IMG/VR virus record: IMGVR_UViG_2671181094_000008
Location: 1 to 40,078 of that record
Direction: 5' to 3' (one strand)
From: a virus
Taxonomy: Duplodnaviria > Heunggongvirae > Uroviricota > Caudoviricetes
Length of the DNA: 40,078 bases
Below are positions 365-33,397 of the stretch, one piece after another. Position 1 is the stretch's first letter; each line of letters opens with the position of its first letter. Both the position numbers and the translations under genes were made by a program. The notes under the pieces are model-generated. The model searched no databases and had not been told where the DNA came from. It saw only the letters and a program-made list of their open reading frames with translations.

Positions 365-1423
365 TTAGGTTGTCACTTGCTTCGATTTTACGCTGAAAAA
401 ATTCTTTCTGAATCTTTCAGATGGATTTTCAACAATAAAATACATCGCTATACCAAATGCTATCACAAAACAAAATGATAGCATTGAAATCAACATTGAT
501 GAACTCTCTCTTGGTATAACCCAAAATACATAATTATATAGATAAATTGAAAAAGAACACTTACCAACAAATGAAAGCAATCTCACTACTATCGTAGGGT
601 TAACATTACCCTTGCCTCCAACAACAAACGACCACATAGAAATTGCCGCAAAAGTAGAAGCAACTATTTCATAAAGTTTAACATTGTTATTAAATCCATC
701 ACCCTTATAGAAAAGCATAACAACTAAAGCGACAATGGAAGATATCCTTATTGCTTTTAATTTACGAAAGCTTAAGCCACAGTCGGATGAGACAAACAAA
801 ACCCAACCCAAAACAAAAAGATAAAGGTAGGATATTATTGACCACGTCAACACCCTATCCACGGTTATAAGATTAATAACGATGGAAGATACAGCGCAAA
901 TCGCAAGCAATATAATTCTATTGCGATCTGTTTTGCAAATCAAAACAAAAATTGGCAACAACAAATAAAACTGCATTTCTACAGCTAACGACCAATAAAC
1001 ACCGCTAATGCTAAACATTGTACTTTCATTTAAGTTATGTATGAATGTCATGTGAGTTAAAATGTCATATATTCCAGTTGGCTTTTCTGCCACTCCATAA
1101 CATCTTATCAATACTATCCAAAACAAAATAGAAATGTAGTACGGAATCGCAATCCGTAGAAAACGCTTTGAGAAATAAAGAAAATAACTTGACTGTGAAA
1201 CACCATTTGAAAACATGTTTCTTGTTGACATTCCCATGCAGTACCCGGAAATAACGAAGAAAATCCCAACCCCTATCCATCCATTCCCAAATGGACCATA
1301 AAGGTCAAAATAGTTACCCAATGGCAGCCCACCAGAAGAAGACCAGAGGAAAATGTGGAACGATGTCACCAATAGAACAGCGACTCCTCTGAATGCATCT
1401 ATGATGTAGTTTCTTGTTTTCAT
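365..1423 (-). CDS. Acyltransferase family 3 membrane protein (OafA/Oac-like, candidate O-antigen acetyltransferase)
   Basis: 352-aa polytopic membrane protein with N-terminus MKTRNYIIDAFRGVAVLLV...FHIF typical of acyltransferase_3. Markedly AT-rich compared with the phage backbone, and placed beyond the tail genes as a moron. Confidence 0.75.
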   Translation of the reverse strand: MKTRNYIIDAFRGVAVLLVTSFHIFLWSSSGGLPLGNYFDLYGPFGNGWIGVGIFFVISGYCMGMSTRNMFSNGVSQSSYFLYFSKRFLRIAIPYYISILFWIVLIRCYGVAEKPTGIYDILTHMTFIHNLNESTMFSISGVYWSLAVEMQFYLLLPIFVLICKTDRNRIILLAICAVSSIVINLITVDRVLTWSIISYLYLFVLGWVLFVSSDCGLSFRKLKAIRISSIVALVVMLFYKGDGFNNNVKLYEIVASTFAAISMWSFVVGGKGNVNPTIVVRLLSFVGKCSFSIYLYNYVFWVIPRESSSMLISMLSFCFVIAFGIAMYFIVENPSERFRKNFFSVKSKQVTT

Positions 1424-2004: not shown

Positions 2005-2688
2005 TTAGTTTCCTGAAATGTATCCAGAGGCGATATCAAAAATAGTTGCAAACTCAGGGGTAACTTCATACACCCCTTCGTCATTAAACCCAAAATAGAT
2101 ATAACCGAATTTTACAAGCGTATAGGATGGAGACAGCGCTGAAATGCGACACTCTAGTTGCCTGTTTCCCCATGAACGTAATGGGTCTCCGCAATAACTT
2201 ATCCCGACTCGGGAGTATGTTATATTCGTTTCCTCTCCTTCAACCATCCAGACAAATGGCCAGTCATCACCATTTAACCCATCACCACAAACTGATAATC
2301 CCGCTCGCGCCTGTCGGTATTCTTTAATTGAGATGGTATAACCCATTGCGGCAGCAATACTGATGAAATAGCTTTTTGACTGACCGCCGGTGCTTATTAA
2401 TTTTGAGACGATTGCATTTTGTCGCTTGGCGATTGTGTCGACCTCGCCAATGGAGCAATCATCAGGTAATCCGAGCGTATTTTCCCAGTCAGTAAGCATG
2501 ATGGTCGCTGTCTTCGGGAAAGCGCCACTAAGAAGAGCCTGAGCGTCATTATCACTACGTTGAAAACTCCTTGCCAGCGCTCGAAGCACTGCCGTCTGCA
2601 CTGCATTTTTATCTCGTGTCCAGGCTCTTCCTGACGGGATTAGTGCCTGTAGCGCTTTAAGGTAGTCGTCAGTTGAGAAGAGGCTCAT
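2005..2688 (-). CDS. Phage tail protein, Mu gp48-like (DUF2313 type)
   Basis: Position after the baseplate J gene and N-terminus MSLFSTDDYLKALQALIP...; start overlaps the upstream gene's stop. Confidence 0.55.
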   Translation of the reverse strand: MSLFSTDDYLKALQALIPSGRAWTRDKNAVQTAVLRALARSFQRSDNDAQALLSGAFPKTATIMLTDWENTLGLPDDCSIGEVDTIAKRQNAIVSKLISTGGQSKSYFISIAAAMGYTISIKEYRQARAGLSVCGDGLNGDDWPFVWMVEGEETNITYSRVGISYCGDPLRSWGNRQLECRISALSPSYTLVKFGYIYFGFNDEGVYEVTPEFATIFDIASGYISGN

Positions 2689-3833
2689 GTATAGTTCACC
2701 TCGCCACGAACGGCCATCTCCCCTATTCCCGGCTCAATATTTGCAGATGGGGAGACCAGAATAAAACCAGCCGTGCCTGAAACGTCCCCTATCGCACGGT
2801 TGAGGTCTGAAAGATAGATTTTTCCTGTTCCGAGAGGATCAGCAGATTCAAACAAAACACTGTCAATAGCGTCAGCTATAGCAGCAGTTGTCGTGCTACT
2901 CGCATCAGAGATACCGCTTATCTCAAAATCAATAACCAGCTCAGTAGGCGAACAGATGTAATTCAGGGAAGTCACAGGGGCAAGTGGGTACATATAATCG
3001 GCTACCCTTCCCTGATCGCCCGTGGCCTTTACTGCACCCCATTCTTCCAGTTGTGATACGCCATCCGTGCCAACCGGGAACCCATGGTTTGTCTTGTCGT
3101 TTCCATCACACATGATGTAAATCACAACGGTACCGGGACCCATTCCTCTACGGCGGACCCATGCACGTGTAACACCGGATACGGCCAGAGCCCATGTACG
3201 ATAATCCGTATCGCTCCCTCCTTGTGGTGGATTCTGGAACGCCAGCAGCCCCCGCTGTCGAAAATCTTCTTCATTTTCGATGTCGGCGCCGCCGGTAGCC
3301 GGTTCAATTAACGTAACCGAGCTGTCAATACCCGGCACGTTGGCATCCAGTGTCAGGAGCGTTCCGGCATCGGCATTTCCCCGGCTGCCACCGCCAGTGA
3401 TATCCTCTGAGATATCTGGTAGTCTGGCCGTCACCGCAACAGTAGCGCTGCCCGTGGAATCAATCATTACACTGGCGTCCGTGCTGTACTGGTAGCCATC
3501 CGCACGGTTAATTACAGAGCCCCTGGCTAAAACCCGCCCCGGTGTTCCGGTAATTTGCGCTGCCGGTGAGCGAGCCGCGGTCGCCGCTTTACGGTAGATC
3601 TGCTTCAACGCCATCCATCCGGCAAGCCATTCATCGGTTGATGTGAACGGCGTGCTCTGTCTGGCGATATAATCCAGATAGGCATAATGCAGGTGCGCCA
3701 TACCCGCGTCCATGTCGGCAAGCACTTTCAGATTACCGAATCGTAGCAGCGCGCCAACGTTCTCCAGCTCTGCCTGCATGAACTGGCGGTTCTCGTCACG
3801 GAGCTCACTCAGTGTTTTCCGTTTAAATGGCAT
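2685..3833 (-). CDS. Baseplate J-like protein (Mu gp47 / P2 gpJ family)
   Basis: 382 aa; gene order and size fit a Mu-like baseplate wedge protein. Confidence 0.7.
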   Translation of the reverse strand: MPFKRKTLSELRDENRQFMQAELENVGALLRFGNLKVLADMDAGMAHLHYAYLDYIARQSTPFTSTDEWLAGWMALKQIYRKAATAARSPAAQITGTPGRVLARGSVINRADGYQYSTDASVMIDSTGSATVAVTARLPDISEDITGGGSRGNADAGTLLTLDANVPGIDSSVTLIEPATGGADIENEEDFRQRGLLAFQNPPQGGSDTDYRTWALAVSGVTRAWVRRRGMGPGTVVIYIMCDGNDKTNHGFPVGTDGVSQLEEWGAVKATGDQGRVADYMYPLAPVTSLNYICSPTELVIDFEISGISDASSTTTAAIADAIDSVLFESADPLGTGKIYLSDLNRAIGDVSGTAGFILVSPSANIEPGIGEMAVRGEVNYT

Positions 3834-27657: not shown

Positions 27658-27947
27658 GCTGATGTTCTCCCGTAAACAGCCAGTACCCGTTTCATCGCCG
27701 GGCTTTGCCGACACTCGTTGAAAATCTGATTGGTGCTCTTCCTGCCTGAAATTTCTTCTTCAGTGGCCAGCCGGTAGTAAACCGTCCGCCACACCCGAGC
27801 TTCCGCTACCAGTACCCCCTGCTTTGCCAGGATATTGGCAGCCTGGTTGATGCAGGTATGCGTCATCCCGGAAGCCGCGGCGACATCTGGAGAGCTGCAG
27901 GTTTTATGCGTTTTCAGGTAGTTCAGAATTGCGTCTTTTCCTGTCAT
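27654..27947 (-). CDS. Hypothetical protein, possible winged-helix DNA-binding
   Basis: 97 aa, overlaps both neighbours. Confidence 0.35.
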   Translation of the reverse strand: MTGKDAILNYLKTHKTCSSPDVAAASGMTHTCINQAANILAKQGVLVAEARVWRTVYYRLATEEEISGRKSTNQIFNECRQSPAMKRVLAVYGRTSA

Positions 27948-28795
27948 GACCGGTTCTCCCGATAGCTGTCCCAGGTAAACGAAATCGTGCAGCCGCCGCC
28001 GTCGTTCATGCGGTCGATGACGCGCTCGCCGATAAACTGCGTCAGCTCATCCTTCGGCAGGTTGCTGATCAGGATCGTCGGCTTCAGGCGCTCGTAGCGG
28101 GTGTTGATGATTTCAAACATGATCATCTTCTCGGCTTCGCTGCCAAACTGCACACCAACCTCATCGACAATCAGAAGGTCTGGCTTCGTGAAGTAGCGGA
28201 TCACCTCATCCTCAGTGCGCGTGGCTGTTTTTGACCAGGTCGATTTAAACTCCCGGGCAATCTTCAGCGCCGTCGTGAAAATGACTGAGCTTTGGTGGTG
28301 CTCAATCACATGACGGGCAATGGCCAGCGCAAGGTGGTTTTTACCGGTACCAGGCTTGCCACACATAACCAACCCACCGCCCTGCTGGAGGCGATCAGTC
28401 CATTTCGATGCGTAGGCCTGGCAGACCCGTAATGCTCGCTCAGAATCCTTCCCAACAGGCTTGTAGCTGTCCAGAGTGCACGTGGAGAATCGCTCTGGTA
28501 TGTCCAGCTGGCGAAGCAGCCTTTCTGCAGTTTGCTGGCGAACTCGCTTATCCCAGCGAACCTTTTCATCCTTCAGAAAATTCAGTTCGTCTTGCAGGCA
28601 GCCCGGGCAGCGTGTCGGCGGTGATGGCAGATTGATGATGCTGCTGGTCAGGATCCGCTTACGCTGCTCATACTCGCCATGCTTTTCGCAACAGACGCGC
28701 TCGATAACCACCTCGCAATTCGGGATGTCTTCCGGTGGCTTACTCAGCTGATCAAGCATCCGCTCAATGGCAGTGATTTTTTCTTCCAGTTCCAT
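27944..28795 (-). CDS. DnaC-like replicative helicase loader (IstB-like AAA+ ATPase)
   Basis: Walker A GKPGTGKNHLA and Walker B LLIVDEVG; directly downstream of the O-like initiator. Confidence 0.8.
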   Translation of the reverse strand: MELEEKITAIERMLDQLSKPPEDIPNCEVVIERVCCEKHGEYEQRKRILTSSIINLPSPPTRCPGCLQDELNFLKDEKVRWDKRVRQQTAERLLRQLDIPERFSTCTLDSYKPVGKDSERALRVCQAYASKWTDRLQQGGGLVMCGKPGTGKNHLALAIARHVIEHHQSSVIFTTALKIAREFKSTWSKTATRTEDEVIRYFTKPDLLIVDEVGVQFGSEAEKMIMFEIINTRYERLKPTILISNLPKDELTQFIGERVIDRMNDGGGCTISFTWDSYRENRS

Positions 28796-28797
28796 GA

Positions 28798-29652
28798 TCA
28801 GTCCCTCGCCCATGATGGGATTTCAGTCTGCCCGTAATCCTTCCCTGAGAAATTTTCGGCAACTCGCACCTGTTGACTTGGTTGAGGCTTGGCACCATTT
28901 GGCTCAAACAGGCCTTGCCAGCCATTGGCGATGCTGCGGTTGATAATTTCTTCGGGCGAGTAACCGTTCAGTCTGCAGCGGTCCAGCAGGTTGATAGCCT
29001 GGGTGACCGTCTGCTGAGACTTGATCGGCTTTTTCAGGTCGCGACGATATGCCACCCATGACGACCAGATTTCTGCAGAAAGCCAGTCAGGCAACTGAAC
29101 AGCTAACGCATCGAACGAAACCGCCCGGGGGGATTTAGGGGGGTTATTAATATTGTCTTTATTGTCTTTTGTATGTTTGTCTTTTGTGTTTACCTGATTC
29201 GGGTAATAGGCGTTACCTGATTCGGGTAAACTTTTCTTACCTGATTCGGGTAATGTTACCTTTTTCAGGTAAGGTTTTTTTTCTTTACCTTTTACGGGTA
29301 AAGATGACCATTCGCTGACCGTTTTATTAATCCCGATAACACGACCGGTTTGAGTTAATATCCCCCGCTTAACCAGGACGCTTTTTGCAGCTGAGCACTT
29401 ATGCGGGAGAATGCCGGTCAGCTCCGAGAGCTGCTCGTTACTGACCCAGTCAGATTTCTTGTTGAAGCCGTATGTTTTGCGCATGACAGCCATGAACACC
29501 AAAAGCTGATGCTGCGACAGACCCGCACGCATGACAGCTTCAAGGAGCTCATTGGCGATGCGCGTAAACCCATCGTCGAGATCTGCCACGCGCAGCTCCT
29601 GTAGTGCCACGACAGGCACAGGGAAATTGATTACCTCGGCAGTATTTGCCAT
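28798..29652 (-). CDS. Replication initiator, lambda O-like
   Basis: Position after cII, an internal iteron array with a K/D/N-rich linker in the reading frame, followed by the helicase-loader gene. Confidence 0.75.
   Translation of the reverse strand: MANTAEVINFPVPVVALQELRVADLDDGFTRIANELLEAVMRAGLSQHQLLVFMAVMRKTYGFNKKSDWVSNEQLSELTGILPHKCSAAKSVLVKRGILTQTGRVIGINKTVSEWSSLPVKGKEKKPYLKKVTLPESGKKSLPESGNAYYPNQVNTKDKHTKDNKDNINNPPKSPRAVSFDALAVQLPDWLSAEIWSSWVAYRRDLKKPIKSQQTVTQAINLLDRCRLNGYSPEEIINRSIANGWQGLFEPNGAKPQPSQQVRVAENFSGKDYGQTEIPSWARD
29144..29302. repeat. Replication origin: five iterons plus adjacent AT-rich tract inside the O-like gene
   Basis: Iterons TACCTGATTCGGGTAA at 29191..29206, 29214..29229, 29238..29253, with degenerate copies TACCTTTTTCAGGTAA (29257..29272) and TACCTTTTACGGGTAA (about 29287..29302); each is an internal palindrome TACC-N8-GGTA. 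AT-rich tract at 29144..29190. Confidence 0.75.
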
Positions 29653-29737: not shown

Positions 29738-29959
29738 TCATGCTTCAAAATCACCTTTCTCTCCCGGCCTGTTAGAAATCAGGATGGCCAGCAGCAGCGA
29801 CATGTTCGGCAGCAGACTTTCCCGCCAGCGACTCACCGTCGACTTATTCACTCCGGCCACTTTGGCGATATTCGTGGTTCCCAGTTCAGCTATCTGGCTG
29901 TGTAACCAGCTTTCTATCCTGCGAGCCTCCACTTTGTTGCGTGTCGTTGAACTCTCCAT
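29738..29959 (-). CDS. CII-like transcriptional activator
   Basis: 73 aa, similar to lambda CII as I recall it (RIESWLHSQIAELGT...STVSRWRESLLP..MSLLLAIL); sits between cro and O. Confidence 0.65.
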   Translation of the reverse strand: MESSTTRNKVEARRIESWLHSQIAELGTTNIAKVAGVNKSTVSRWRESLLPNMSLLLAILISNRPGEKGDFEA

Positions 29960-29999: not shown

Positions 30000-30227
30000 T
30001 TAGGCGGCCGGTGAATGCGCGCTCAGCAACTGAGCAAGGTCAGGCCTGATCTCTGCCGCCTTAATCTTGCCGTTGGTCGCAGACACGATTTTCATTACAT
30101 AGCGAGCGTCAATTCCGCCGCCATGCAGCCAGCGCCAAACTGTCGGCTGCGCTACGCCACACAGATCGGCCAATTTTTTCTGACTGCCAGCGATATCAAT
30201 TGCCTTCTGGATGGTTTTGTTCGTCAT
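30000..30227 (-). CDS. Cro-like HTH repressor
   Basis: Start MTNKTIQKAID preceded by AGGAA; first gene of the rightward operon, divergent from cI. Confidence 0.6.
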   Translation of the reverse strand: MTNKTIQKAIDIAGSQKKLADLCGVAQPTVWRWLHGGGIDARYVMKIVSATNGKIKAAEIRPDLAQLLSAHSPAA

Positions 30228-30259
30228 GTTCCAATTCCTATAAGTATTGGTGCAAAATG

Positions 30260-30288
30260 ATAATAGCAATGCGTATTGGTTTTAGCAA
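30260..30288 (-). promoter_or_regulatory. PR-like early promoter with embedded operator
   Basis: Minus strand TTGCTA, 17-nt spacer, TATTAT; operator palindrome CAATGCGTATTG (30267..30278) in the spacer. Confidence 0.55.
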
Positions 30289-30302
30289 TAGCAAAACGTG
30301 TT

Positions 30303-30330
30303 TTGACCAGTAATACGCAAGCGTATAAAT
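30303..30330 (+). promoter_or_regulatory. PRM-like promoter for cI with overlapping operator
   Basis: TTGACC, 15-16-nt spacer, TATAAA(T); near-palindrome ATACGCAAGCGTAT (30313..30326) in the spacer; transcript would be almost leaderless. Confidence 0.45.
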
Positions 30331-30338
30331 TTGAGATT

Positions 30339-31037
30339 ATGAAAAAAGAAACTCTTGCAGATCGTTTAAACGAGGCCATGGCTTCGGCTGGAATGTCACA
30401 AGGGGCGCTTGCGAAGGCCTCAGGTATTGCTCAGCCAACCATTTGGCGCCTGGTGAGTGGAAACGCCAGGGGTTCAACAAAAATTGTCGAGATAGCTAAT
30501 GCTTTGGGCGTCAGGTCTGAATGGTTATCAACCGGAAATGGACCGATGCGCGATGACGGCCAGCTCCCTCGCGCTGCCCAGGTTAAAAGCCAGGATACTG
30601 ATGCATTCAGGATTGATGTGCTGGACCTTATGGTTAGTGCCGGGCCGGGCATCGTGAACCAGGAGTTCGTCGAGATTCTCCGTTCTGTTGAGTATGAGCC
30701 AGCTGAAGCCCGGCACATGTTCGATGGGCGTAAGGCTGAGAACATCCGGATCATCAACGTCCGGGGCGACAGCATGTCTGGGACGATTGAGCCGGGTGAT
30801 CTGCTGTTCGTCGACATCAGCGTTAAGAGCTTCGACGGCGACGGGATATACGCCTTCCTGTACGACGACACTGCTCACGTCAAGCGCCTGCAGAAGATGA
30901 AGGATAAGCTGCTGGTTATCTCAGATAACAAGAGCTATGCCCCTTGGGAACCGATCGAGAAAGATGAGATGAATCGGGTGTTCGTGTTCGGCAAGGTGAT
31001 CGGCAGCATGCCGCAGACGTACAGGAAGCATGGGTAA
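30339..31037 (+). CDS. CI-like repressor (HTH plus S24 LexA-like autopeptidase domain)
   Basis: N-terminal HTH, C-terminal GDSMSG (Ser nucleophile) and VKRL (Lys); divergent from cro. Start MKKETLADRL chosen over the upstream ATG to leave room for the operators. Confidence 0.85.
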   Translation: MKKETLADRLNEAMASAGMSQGALAKASGIAQPTIWRLVSGNARGSTKIVEIANALGVRSEWLSTGNGPMRDDGQLPRAAQVKSQDTDAFRIDVLDLMVSAGPGIVNQEFVEILRSVEYEPAEARHMFDGRKAENIRIINVRGDSMSGTIEPGDLLFVDISVKSFDGDGIYAFLYDDTAHVKRLQKMKDKLLVISDNKSYAPWEPIEKDEMNRVFVFGKVIGSMPQTYRKHG

Positions 31038-31059
31038 AGCCTTAGCACACAGAGGAAGC

Positions 31060-31179
31060 ATGTCTGATCTGATTATCCCAATACTCATTACTTTGCTGAT
31101 TATCGGGCTGGTTGGGATCGTGCTCAGGCTAGATAAGATTTTCTTCAAGCGAAGGGATGAGCGGGATGACTTTGAATAA
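31060..31179 (+). CDS. Small hydrophobic membrane peptide (39 aa), absent from the ORF track
   Basis: MSDLIIPILITLLIIGLVGIVLRLDKIFFKRRDERDDFE: one TM helix and charged tail; GAGG 4 nt upstream of the ATG; 22 nt downstream of the cI stop. Confidence 0.4.
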   Translation: MSDLIIPILITLLIIGLVGIVLRLDKIFFKRRDERDDFE

Positions 31180-31304
31180 GCCAGACCGGTAGTTCGATGT
31201 GTTTTTGGTAATGCCGAAGACGTACAGGAAGCATGGATAGCCAGCCAGTGGCCTGACAAGGTGTTTGGGTGATGAGAAGATAGCAATAACTTAGAGGCTT
31301 AAAT

Positions 31305-32069
31305 GTGATCAGAATAGGAAGGTTACTACCTGGCGGCATTGCAATTGACGAAGGGCAACATCACCCGATAAAGGGCGTTGCTCTTTTGATAAAAGAAAAT
31401 AGCGAACCAGAAGAGATTGTTGTTTTTGCAAAAGAAATATCTTCTAGGAGCATTTCTATAGAAATAACCTGCGCAGCCTTGGGAAGAGCTCTATCCCTGC
31501 CTATACCCGAGCCAGTACTACTGTTTGACAGCTCAAACAAAGCATTTTTTGGTAGTGTTGATGCTACCTATCCGAGTTTCATGAAGTATGTTTCTAACTC
31601 TTCAGATCAGGCCGTTTCTGATGCTTTGGCATCATGGCCGTTATTGAAAAAAGCTAGCTATTTTGATGAGTGGATTGCGATGGATGACCGTCACAACGGA
31701 AATTTGCTTTTCAATGGTGATGGTTTCTTCCTGATAGACCATGAATCGGCAATTCCCCAAGGTCTTGCCCCTGACCTTTTCGGGATAGATTATTACTCCA
31801 ATCAATTGCTGCAGGTAGCAACTTACATACTCGATAGAAGTAATGATATAGCCGTTCAGATGATGGCAAATGAGGCGAGAGCTTGGACCATGTCTTGCAA
31901 GAGTAACACCCTAACGCTATTAGATGGAGAGATATCCGAAACAGTTCAAGGTAAAGAGAAAAATCAAATAATGTCTTTCCTTTCATCTAGAATTGAGTTA
32001 CTAGGAGACATTCTTTATGATCAAATCAAGCCCCAACAAACACAGATGATATACGATGCTAAATCTTGA
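31305..32069 (+). CDS. HipA / PI3-4-kinase-like fold protein
   Basis: GTG start with AGAGG 8 nt upstream; catalytic-loop-like DRHNGNLLF and downstream FFLIDHES; AT-rich; co-oriented downstream of cI. Confidence 0.5.
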   Translation: MIRIGRLLPGGIAIDEGQHHPIKGVALLIKENSEPEEIVVFAKEISSRSISIEITCAALGRALSLPIPEPVLLFDSSNKAFFGSVDATYPSFMKYVSNSSDQAVSDALASWPLLKKASYFDEWIAMDDRHNGNLLFNGDGFFLIDHESAIPQGLAPDLFGIDYYSNQLLQVATYILDRSNDIAVQMMANEARAWTMSCKSNTLTLLDGEISETVQGKEKNQIMSFLSSRIELLGDILYDQIKPQQTQMIYDAKS

Positions 32070-32937
32070 TCAGCTTCTTAAGTCAGCTCCTGCTATGCCT
32101 GCAACATCAGGGCGCTGGGCATCTGTTTATCTTGAACCAATGATCGGCTCAGGAGAGCGGCTCACGGTAGCAGTTGCCACGATAACATCATCTGGTGAAA
32201 TTTTAGTTAAGCCGGCAATCAGAAAAGAAGTTATAGAAGCTATGTATGGCTTCAAAGCACCAGCATTTATCAATGTGGTTGATCTGATTTTGTCGAGTTT
32301 GAAGTTGCATCTGGCTGCTAAGGGGGATTTCGTATCATGGCATCCTCCAGTTACAGGCGTCACTATAAGCGCCGTAAGGAATGCTGCGTCATCAAGCCCT
32401 GTTGGCATACTCCGCCAAGCGGTATCATTGTCATCGAGTTTGTCATCACTCCTTGAGGCTGAAGAAGATTCCGATGGGTTGCCAGCTAAGCAATCAAGAA
32501 CTAAAGACAGGTGGCCAATTCAAATCTTTGATGCGGTTATCAGCGCTGACGGACGCAGGGATATTTTTTTCAATAGAAGCTTCACCTTTAGTGATGGACA
32601 CAGACCGGCTAAAATTTTCTATCTAAGCGATCATGCAGCTATCAACACCGGAAAACTGTTACCCCACAACTTGAATGAGCAGGTTAAGGATGGAAAAGCA
32701 AAAATATCTGACTTATCAATGATAAAAAGGCAAGGCGATATTTTTCCAAGAGAAACTCATCAAATGATTATCTACAAACCGGAAGATGATAGCCCTGCAT
32801 ACAATGATAGGCACATAGCATCAATAAATAGTGCGTACCTTTCTTTACAGGACTTGGCTAACACCTACGATGTATCAATCACTTCTGTAAGCACTGCCGA
32901 GCATGCAGCAAGGTTAATATTGCAAACTGCAGCATAA
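32056..32937 (+). CDS. Hypothetical protein, translationally coupled partner of the kinase-like gene
   Basis: 293 aa; start overlaps the upstream gene by 14 nt; no motif I recognise; AT-rich. Confidence 0.5.
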   Translation: MLNLDQLLKSAPAMPATSGRWASVYLEPMIGSGERLTVAVATITSSGEILVKPAIRKEVIEAMYGFKAPAFINVVDLILSSLKLHLAAKGDFVSWHPPVTGVTISAVRNAASSSPVGILRQAVSLSSSLSSLLEAEEDSDGLPAKQSRTKDRWPIQIFDAVISADGRRDIFFNRSFTFSDGHRPAKIFYLSDHAAINTGKLLPHNLNEQVKDGKAKISDLSMIKRQGDIFPRETHQMIIYKPEDDSPAYNDRHIASINSAYLSLQDLANTYDVSITSVSTAEHAARLILQTAA

Positions 32938-32945
32938 CTTTTGAT

Positions 32946-32970
32946 CCGGCCACCGCGCCGGGTTTTTACT
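32946..32970 (+). terminator. Rho-independent terminator ending the cI-cassette operon
   Basis: CCGGC-loop-GCCGG hairpin followed by GTTTTTAC immediately after the cassette stop. Confidence 0.5.
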
Positions 32971-32973
32971 GCC

Positions 32974-33177
32974 CTACTCTTCCCTCAGCATCAGCACGTC
33001 CAGCGCCAACTCCACAGCCAGATCGACCTGGTCTTCCTGCCACAACACCTGAATCATCTCTATCAGCGCCTCTCTTGATGGCTCGCGCCTCTCAACCAGC
33101 AGCTGCATAACCGCTATCCCGATGACCTGCGCAATCTGCGGGTGCATCTCTGCGAAAAACTCATCCTCATTCGACAT
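32974..33177 (-). CDS. Small acidic hypothetical protein, convergent with the cI operon
   Basis: Start MSNEDEFFAEMHPQ chosen; gene begins at the edge of the OL-like operator region. Confidence 0.4.
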   Translation of the reverse strand: MSNEDEFFAEMHPQIAQVIGIAVMQLLVERREPSREALIEMIQVLWQEDQVDLAVELALDVLMLREE

Positions 33178-33289
33178 GGCGCTACCCTTTTTGGCGTTTT
33201 TTTGAGCATAACAGCACAATAGGAAAAAATAAATTCATTTAGCTATCAATGATTTAATAGCAATAGCTATCAAATAATAACAATACGTA

Positions 33290-33318
33290 TTGCTATGGTT
33301 AATACTCATTGCTATTAT
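33290..33318 (+). promoter_or_regulatory. pL-like early-left promoter with OL-type operators
   Basis: TTGCTA, 17-nt spacer, TATTAT (same architecture as PR); perfect palindrome CAATACGTATTG at 33281..33292 overlapping the -35, plus TAGCAATAGC-type repeats upstream. Confidence 0.55.
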
Positions 33319-33397
33319 CATCTCATCCAAACAACACCGGCAACGCCGGGGTGAAGTCAAAACGTCCCGTTAGCCGCGATAAGGCAAAGGTGAAGAG

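Follow-up and report, generated by a model that had tools for sequence, protein, structure and literature searches.

Which genes stand between the repressor gene and the leftward operator of a lambda-like prophage, at the place where lambda itself carries rexA and rexB? The question is raised by a Caudoviricetes sequence of 40,078 nucleotides (nt) (IMG/VR record IMGVR_UViG_2671181094_000008; "the window" hereafter means this whole stretch), a lambda-like prophage in reversed orientation relative to the lambda map, in which an AT-rich cassette of two overlapping genes occupies positions 31305 to 32937. The cassette encodes a predicted HipA/PI3-4-kinase-like protein of 254 amino acids (aa; gene 1) and a 293-aa partner (gene 2), and most likely belongs, as a divergent relative that has gone undetected until now, with the validated HipA-kinase/DUF3037 anti-phage system named DS-6, HipAD or PDC-M66. 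We propose that the lysogen expresses it as a kinase-based system for abortive infection or superinfection defence, organised like a toxin-antitoxin pair, in which the partner would restrain the kinase until a phage cue arrives, and we give this reading a probability of roughly 0.6. The features of the two genes are as follows.

31305..32069, plus strand: gene 1, 254 aa, HipA_2-type Ser/Thr-kinase-like
31431-31433, plus strand: K43 of gene 1
31686-31703, plus strand: D128-R-H-N-G-N133 loop of gene 1
31737-31742, plus strand: D145-H146 of gene 1
32056..32937, plus strand: gene 2, the 293-aa partner
Gene 2, about aa 15-128: N-terminal domain
32134-32160, plus strand: near-invariant gene 2 motif E27-P28-x3-S32-G33-E34-R35 (EPxxxSGER)
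Gene 2, aa 124-133: Ser-rich segment
Gene 2, aa 150-293: C-terminal domain, restriction-endonuclease-like fold

The kinase gene and its obligate neighbour

The first-pass annotation of this DNA, made from the letters and their open reading frames (ORFs), had placed gene 1 among the HipA and PI3/PI4 kinases, taking its DRHNGNLLF (aa 128-136) and FFLIDHES (aa 141-148) segments as the catalytic and metal-binding motifs. Pfam, PADLOC, profile-profile and predicted-fold evidence all agree with this placement. Gene 1 matched Pfam HipA_2 (PF20613) marginally, with an E-value of 9.6e-6 and 25.5 bits (cut-off 27), and PF20613 is precomputed for most of its homologues. The PADLOC model PDC-M66A recognised gene 1 (E 2e-6) and all 34 aligned family members (34/34, best E 2e-11), and the gene 1 family profile aligned with DS-6A, the DS-6 kinase, at 97.4% hhalign probability (E 1.3e-11). 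As a positive control, DS-6A matched PDC-M66A at 6e-15 and HipA_2 with 258 bits, against which the 25.5 bits of gene 1 mark it, as judged from these profiles, as a divergent branch of HipA_2.

The 78 homologues of gene 1, of about 250 aa, come from Enterobacterales, Morganellaceae, Pseudomonas, Shewanella and methanotrophs. In an alignment of 34 sequences reaching down to 25% identity, K43, E53, D128, R129, N133, D145 and H146 are invariant; H130 of the DRH triplet is not conserved (H, S, N, G or C). Further invariants among the homologues are the IPEP hinge and N166. The ATP-binding Lys, the alphaC Glu, the catalytic Asp/Asn loop and the metal-binding Asp of a kinase fold are thus all present. 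Direct sequence searches of the PDB with either gene gave only noise, and a profile search with gene 1 gave weak matches to RIO1/Bud32-type kinases; the catalytic loop and the IDH motif of the family profile align to RIO1. The AlphaFold2 model of gene 1, with a predicted local distance difference test (pLDDT) score of 77.5, was matched by Foldseek to CtkA (E 1e-6), VPS34/PI3K, PI4KIIIbeta, RIO1 and HipT, and both the structure searches and hhalign pointed to a kinase fold rather than to a non-kinase one.

The ORFs and their 14-nt overlap, as first annotated, coincide exactly with the gene boundaries in the RefSeq annotation of four Escherichia coli chromosomes, whose copies of the cassette are 99.9-100% identical to it; gene 1 begins with GTG, 7 nt past AGAGG. 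Kinase and then partner are adjacent in 11 lineages, overlapping by 4-17 nt, and diverge in parallel across them: identity to the window proteins falls from 100% to 29% in the kinase and from 100% to 22% in the partner. All 11 contexts are phages or prophages, and in 6 of the 11 lineages a repressor-type gene lies directly upstream of the pair, in line with the expectation that homologues would be enriched at immunity loci. The contexts are as follows.

Window phage and E. coli prophages: after a cI/LexA-family repressor
Methylocucumis prophage: after an HTH_3 repressor
Alteromonas phage P24: after a helix-turn-helix (HTH) repressor
Acinetobacter phage qsb1: after an Arc-like repressor
Morganella prophages: cI, DUF3024, kinase, partner, N
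Pseudomonas syringae prophages: after cI
Hafnia: beside tail-fibre genes
Other lineage(s): between tail-tube and tape-measure genes

Two of these contexts hold additional genes. In the Morganella prophages (L014/L015, 4632-4973) the gene for a 113-aa DUF3024 protein separates cI from the kinase gene, and in the Methylocucumis prophage (L005) the pair is followed by two more genes, of 324 aa and 124 aa, the latter with a weak DUF4325 match; these may be accessory genes or further stacked cargo.

The partner family and its relation to DUF3037

Gene 2 had first been described as having no recognisable motif. This holds as far as model libraries go, since none of the Pfam, PADLOC or NCBIfam models matched it, no relevant Pfam family matched among 76 diverse members of its family, a profile search against the PDB returned nothing, and in PHROGs it falls in phrog_21150, of function unknown; the family also lacks a solved structure. 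It does not hold for the family itself, which conserves EPxxxSGER and has the two-domain layout of DS-6B, the DS-6 partner. By exhaustive profile search the family numbers at least 718 clusters at 50% identity, each counted through its representative at E <= 1e-3, and 540 of them still match at E <= 1e-10; among the best 150 matches listed, most were of about 290 aa with near full-length coverage. Within EPxxxSGER, E27 is conserved in 99% of the family, P28 in 97%, S32 in 95%, G33 in 91% and E34 in 100%, and R35 is basic in 95%. The gene 2 model (pLDDT 82) shows two domains with a disordered acidic linker (aa 129-149) between them. A literature search found no paper naming WP_001548450, WP_001548449, phrog_21150 or PF20613.

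The top structural match of the C-terminal domain was the catalytically dead central domain of ERCC1. Across the 76 diverse members no D...(D/E)xK triad is conserved, and the best-kept residues are F172, K214, K216 and L220, together with position 236, mostly E in the family and Q in gene 2. The domain is therefore probably non-catalytic, like that of ERCC1. An active nuclease, considered as a candidate function of gene 2, was rejected on the lack of a conserved catalytic triad.

The comparison that matters most is with DS-6. A HipA-like kinase with a DUF3037 protein is a PADLOC candidate, PDC-M66, which is the system DS-6 (DeWeirdt, Mahoney & Laub, Science 2026, PMC13092281), since renamed HipAD. 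DS-6 protects E. coli by up to 5 logs, its D139A catalytic mutant loses defence, and an AlphaFold3 prediction places the kinase in complex with its DUF3037-DUF1829 partner, with a weaker contact between partner and DNA (PMC13092281). A HipA/DUF3037 pair in the Retron-Sda1 operon likewise defends by itself; deletion of the kinase abolishes defence, and deletion of the DUF3037 gene is toxic (PMC12548924). The cassette resembles DS-6 in its homologous kinase of about 250 aa with D-R-x3-N ... IDH motifs, in the order of kinase first and overlapping partner next (overlap of 4 nt in DS-6 and 14 nt in the cassette), in a partner of about 280 aa built of an N-terminal domain, a linker and a C-terminal domain that is probably nuclease-like (DUF1829-type) in both, and in being associated with prophages. 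It differs in the divergence of its kinase (25.5 HipA_2 bits versus 258), in a partner that escapes the DUF3037 and PDC-M66B models, and in the partner motif, EPxxxSGER as opposed to PxxETEEFxNxG on the DS-6 side. Since PADLOC-style detection requires both genes, it would miss the cassette.

How far the two partner families are related was examined with DS-6B as control, which scored 7.6e-24 with DUF3037 and 3.8e-16 with PDC-M66B. DUF3037 and DUF1829 were absent from 34 close and 76 diverse relatives of gene 2 in Pfam searches at permissive E-values, and PDC-M66B matched neither gene 2 nor 10 of its relatives in PADLOC at E <= 10. The gene 2 family profile found nothing in the single DS-6B sequence by hhalign. 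Family against family, hhalign gave a probability of 4.7% with a P-value of 0.0085, colinear over 229 columns, and superposed P28, S32 and E34 of the gene 2 family on the conserved P14, T18 and E20 of DUF3037. The C-terminal domains aligned with a P-value of 0.0039, and for these as for the full-length alignment 0 of 200 column shuffles reached the score, a result that may mean shared fold class and not ancestry because column shuffles destroy secondary-structure periodicity. The N-terminal domains did not align significantly (14 of 200 shuffles reached the score), and cross-domain hhalign controls gave nothing. Gene 2 and DS-6B thus share their architecture and probably the fold of the C-terminal domain; common ancestry of their N-terminal domains is possible but unproven.

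Other Hip kinases offer a further comparison. Gerdes et al. (2021, PMC8262856) describe short kinases (hipIN, hipJS, hipMP) whose downstream gene encodes a putative antitoxin made of a kinase-neutralising domain and a HIRAN or resolvase-like domain that binds DNA. With these, and with HipBA and HipBST, the cassette shares a HipA/PI3-4K superfamily kinase as the putative toxin; the short kinases also show the downstream two-domain neutraliser logic proposed here. It is not a canonical HipBA type II toxin-antitoxin module: the kinase, at 254 aa versus about 440 aa for HipA, lacks the HipA N-subdomains and is placed by Pfam in HipA_2, not HipA_C/HipA_N, there is no HipB-type HTH antitoxin, and the partner lies downstream, has no HTH match and is of a different fold. 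No HipS or HIRAN domain was detected.

The slot between cI and pL

The first-pass annotation had put the cassette at the position of lambda rexA/rexB, and syntenic Klebsiella phages show that the locus is literally the rexAB slot. Two sister phages, vB_Kpn_RAH1 and ST101-KPC2phi6.1, match the window at 93-98% identity as far as 31240/31241 and resume the match at 32946-32957. In the interval, the annotation of ST101-KPC2phi6.1 shows RexA and RexB genes, and vB_Kpn_RAH1 has small unrelated ORFs. In the relative ST11-VIM1phi8.2 a ParA-like protein is annotated near the slot. The locus and the alternative cargoes are laid out as follows.

27944-28813, minus strand: DnaC-like gene
28798-29652, minus strand: O-like replication gene
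29738-29959, minus strand: cII
30000-30269, minus strand: cro
30339..31037, plus strand: cI-type repressor gene (ORF 30276-31037, likely start ATG 30339; Peptidase_S24 E 2.8e-18, HTH_3, Phage_CI_repr)
31008..31036, plus strand: 29-nt direct repeat, copy 1, at the 3' end of cI (repeat search)
31030-31179: small hydrophobic ORF of 49 codons, between cI and gene 1
31211..31239, plus strand: 29-nt direct repeat, copy 2 (left boundary of the variable cargo)
32943..32967, plus strand: hairpin followed by U5 (8-bp GC-rich stem, dG, the folding free energy, -12.3 kcal/mol, z -1.9)
32974..33177, minus strand: conserved 67-aa backbone gene, start ATG 33177 (phrog_3946, function unknown, E 4e-39), convergent with the cassette
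33235..33320: OL-like operator repeats (inverted) and pL-like promoter, TTGCTA-17-TATTAT
L004 (MK448231.1), 2161-3444: slot cargo RexA/RexB in ST101-KPC2phi6.1
L003 (PV539235.1), 2743-3267: slot cargo of small unrelated ORFs in vB_Kpn_RAH1

Homology to the sister phages stops at 31240/31241, which makes repeat copy 2 the left edge of the slot; it restarts at 32946-32957, so that the hairpin coincides with the right edge. In the E. coli prophages that carry the cassette, homology to the window begins exactly at the repeat (31211) and extends through the cassette to 33611. The repressor of these prophages and their recombination module (RecE/RecT) are not those of the window. The AT-rich cassette is a module exchanged horizontally. 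Its GC content is 0.424, versus 0.519 for the window and 0.538 for cI, equally low values occurring in only 25 of 769 stretches of 1633 bp, and its 99.9-100% identity in E. coli prophages of different backbone bears out the proposed horizontal acquisition as well as the AT-richness noted at first sight.

Other details of the first description needed correction. The cassette does lie downstream of cI on the same strand, but not directly, the small ORF 31030-31179 intervening. Before OL/pL there is indeed a hairpin followed by U5, probably the intrinsic terminator of the cI operon; it is modest and was not called by the consensus terminator scan, and the cassette does not abut OL because the 67-aa minus-strand gene lies between them. 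That gene stands beside RexAB in MK448231, is also present in the E. coli prophages, and is kept in all sister phages, whichever cargo is present. The cro, cII and O genes are divergent from cI, and the pL-like hexamers are the same as those of the pR-like site at 30288-30260. A promoter-like site at 33302-33274 (minus strand) overlaps the operator region near the 67-aa gene.

The two 29-nt repeats are 93% identical and bracket the small hydrophobic ORF, whose start region overlaps the cI stop and which probably encodes a 39-aa transmembrane peptide from ATG 31060; the same pair of repeats, in the same arrangement, is found in sister Klebsiella phages. In the cassette-bearing E. coli prophages there is only one repeat copy and no small ORF. 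It would seem that the repeat serves as a recombination joint at which cargo modules can be stacked after cI, and that the stretch from cI to the 67-aa gene is a general hotspot for cargo or defence genes.

No terminator-like site was called by the scan between cI and gene 1, which makes co-transcription of the cassette with cI plausible. We considered whether either gene has a promoter of its own and rejected this: the sole plausibly placed site within the cassette was 31993-32021, and 8 sites were called versus 6.2 expected by chance. This sigma-70-like site (plus strand, TTGAGT-17-TATGAT) lies within the last part of gene 1, some 35 nt ahead of the gene 2 start, and would, if real, allow more partner than kinase to be made, much as pLIT favours rexB.

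With lambda RexA/RexB the cassette shares the slot after cI and before OL/pL, presumed expression in the lysogen, and the likely character of a two-gene cargo of abortive-infection or exclusion type. The likeness ends there: no Rex model in PADLOC, Pfam or NCBIfam matched the cassette, whose proteins are unrelated to RexA and RexB in sequence and fold. The proposed effector of the cassette is a soluble kinase; RexB, by contrast, is a membrane protein of ion-channel type.

Elsewhere in the window, the most AT-rich stretch (365-1423, minus strand, about 36% GC) lies just downstream of tail-fibre-like genes. Judged from sequence, its product would be a 352-aa multi-pass membrane protein, acyltransferase-3/O-antigen acetylase-like, of the lysogenic-conversion type.

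What the cassette may do

A defence system related to DS-6 is the best explanation because the kinase is homologous to a defence-validated kinase, the pairing with the partner is obligate and coupled, the pair sits at phage-borne immunity and moron sites, and it is exchanged with rexAB. In the mechanism we propose, the cassette would be a mobile two-gene prophage 'moron' transcribed with the repressor in the lysogen. Gene 1 would be an active small HipA_2-type Ser/Thr kinase and the toxic effector, and gene 2, translationally coupled to it, would serve as cognate neutraliser and sensor, binding and inhibiting the kinase through its N-terminal domain and EPxxxSGER loop and binding nucleic acid or a phage cue through its nuclease-like C-terminal domain. 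When another phage infects, the kinase would be set free and may then phosphorylate either a phage factor or a host factor that is essential, by analogy one of translation, aborting the infection. For this cassette we infer lysogen expression, toxicity, neutralisation by the partner, trigger, substrate and defence phenotype alike.

Several results weigh against this reading. Gene 1 falls slightly below the Pfam gathering threshold. DUF3037 in Pfam and PDC-M66B in PADLOC miss gene 2, yet detect DS-6B; HMMER cross-searches between the gene 2 and DS-6B families returned only noise; and the hhalign probability for the two partner families is just 4.7-8.6%, so that the partner may be analogous and its role may differ. 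The phenotypes cited above come from DS-6 and the Retron-Sda1 pair only, and the sole argument for co-transcription with cI is the absent predicted terminator.

We regard another account as a real possibility, if short of an even chance: that the partner family is not DUF3037 at all but an independent sensor and neutraliser, with a new N-terminal domain and a dead nuclease fold, and the cassette a distinct, presently undetectable kinase-based abortive-infection system swapped with rexAB.

A plain addiction module is improbable by comparison. Here kinase toxin and partner antitoxin would stabilise the prophage with no anti-phage role, as the overlapping, toxin-antitoxin-like two-gene organisation, the toxicity of partner deletion in the related HipA/DUF3037 pair (PMC12548924) and the mobility and AT-richness of the cassette would allow. 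The nearest characterised relatives, however, defend in a kinase-dependent manner (PMC13092281, PMC12548924), the pair occupies classical defence-moron slots (the rexAB position, beside tail-fibre genes, within the tail module), and a 293-aa two-domain partner with a nucleic-acid-binding-type fold exceeds the needs of a simple antitoxin.

We are slightly more doubtful still of an inverted arrangement in which the partner is a nuclease-fold effector and the kinase a sensor that activates it by phosphorylation, for instance in the conserved Ser-rich segment or at S32; the absent D...(D/E)xK triad and the dead ERCC1 domain as top structural match speak against it, and toxicity in the related system follows loss of the partner, not of the kinase (PMC12548924). 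Least likely is a lysogenic-conversion or regulatory kinase acting on host physiology (persistence, tolerance) or on the lysis-lysogeny circuit of the prophage, as growth arrest and tolerance brought about by HipA-family kinases (PMC8262856) and the placement in the cI operon might suggest, but the pair also occurs within modules of tail genes and in unrelated phages whose immunity regions differ, which argues against a single-circuit role.

For the preferred reading of a divergent DS-6 relative, novelty is lowered by the fact that kinase-plus-partner defence is an already validated class (DS-6/HipAD, PDC-M66; PMC13092281, PMC12548924). What is new is a divergent HipA_2 branch and a partner family without any model, invisible to current defence finders, and not a new principle. 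The PADLOC PDC-M66 rule and the DUF3037 model miss this subfamily because, on this reading, its partner has diverged past recognition by hidden Markov models. The EPxxxSGER loop and the probably dead nuclease-like domain offer handles on how such kinases are restrained and triggered. Otherwise syntenic Klebsiella phages, holding RexAB, the cassette or other cargo in a single interval of some 1.7 kb that separates cI from pL, amount to a natural experiment, and the 29-nt repeat and terminator hairpin that bound this interval make it a defined candidate defence hotspot for mining. If the cassette defends, the HipA-kinase defence class would widen to a large phage- and prophage-borne subfamily across Gammaproteobacteria.

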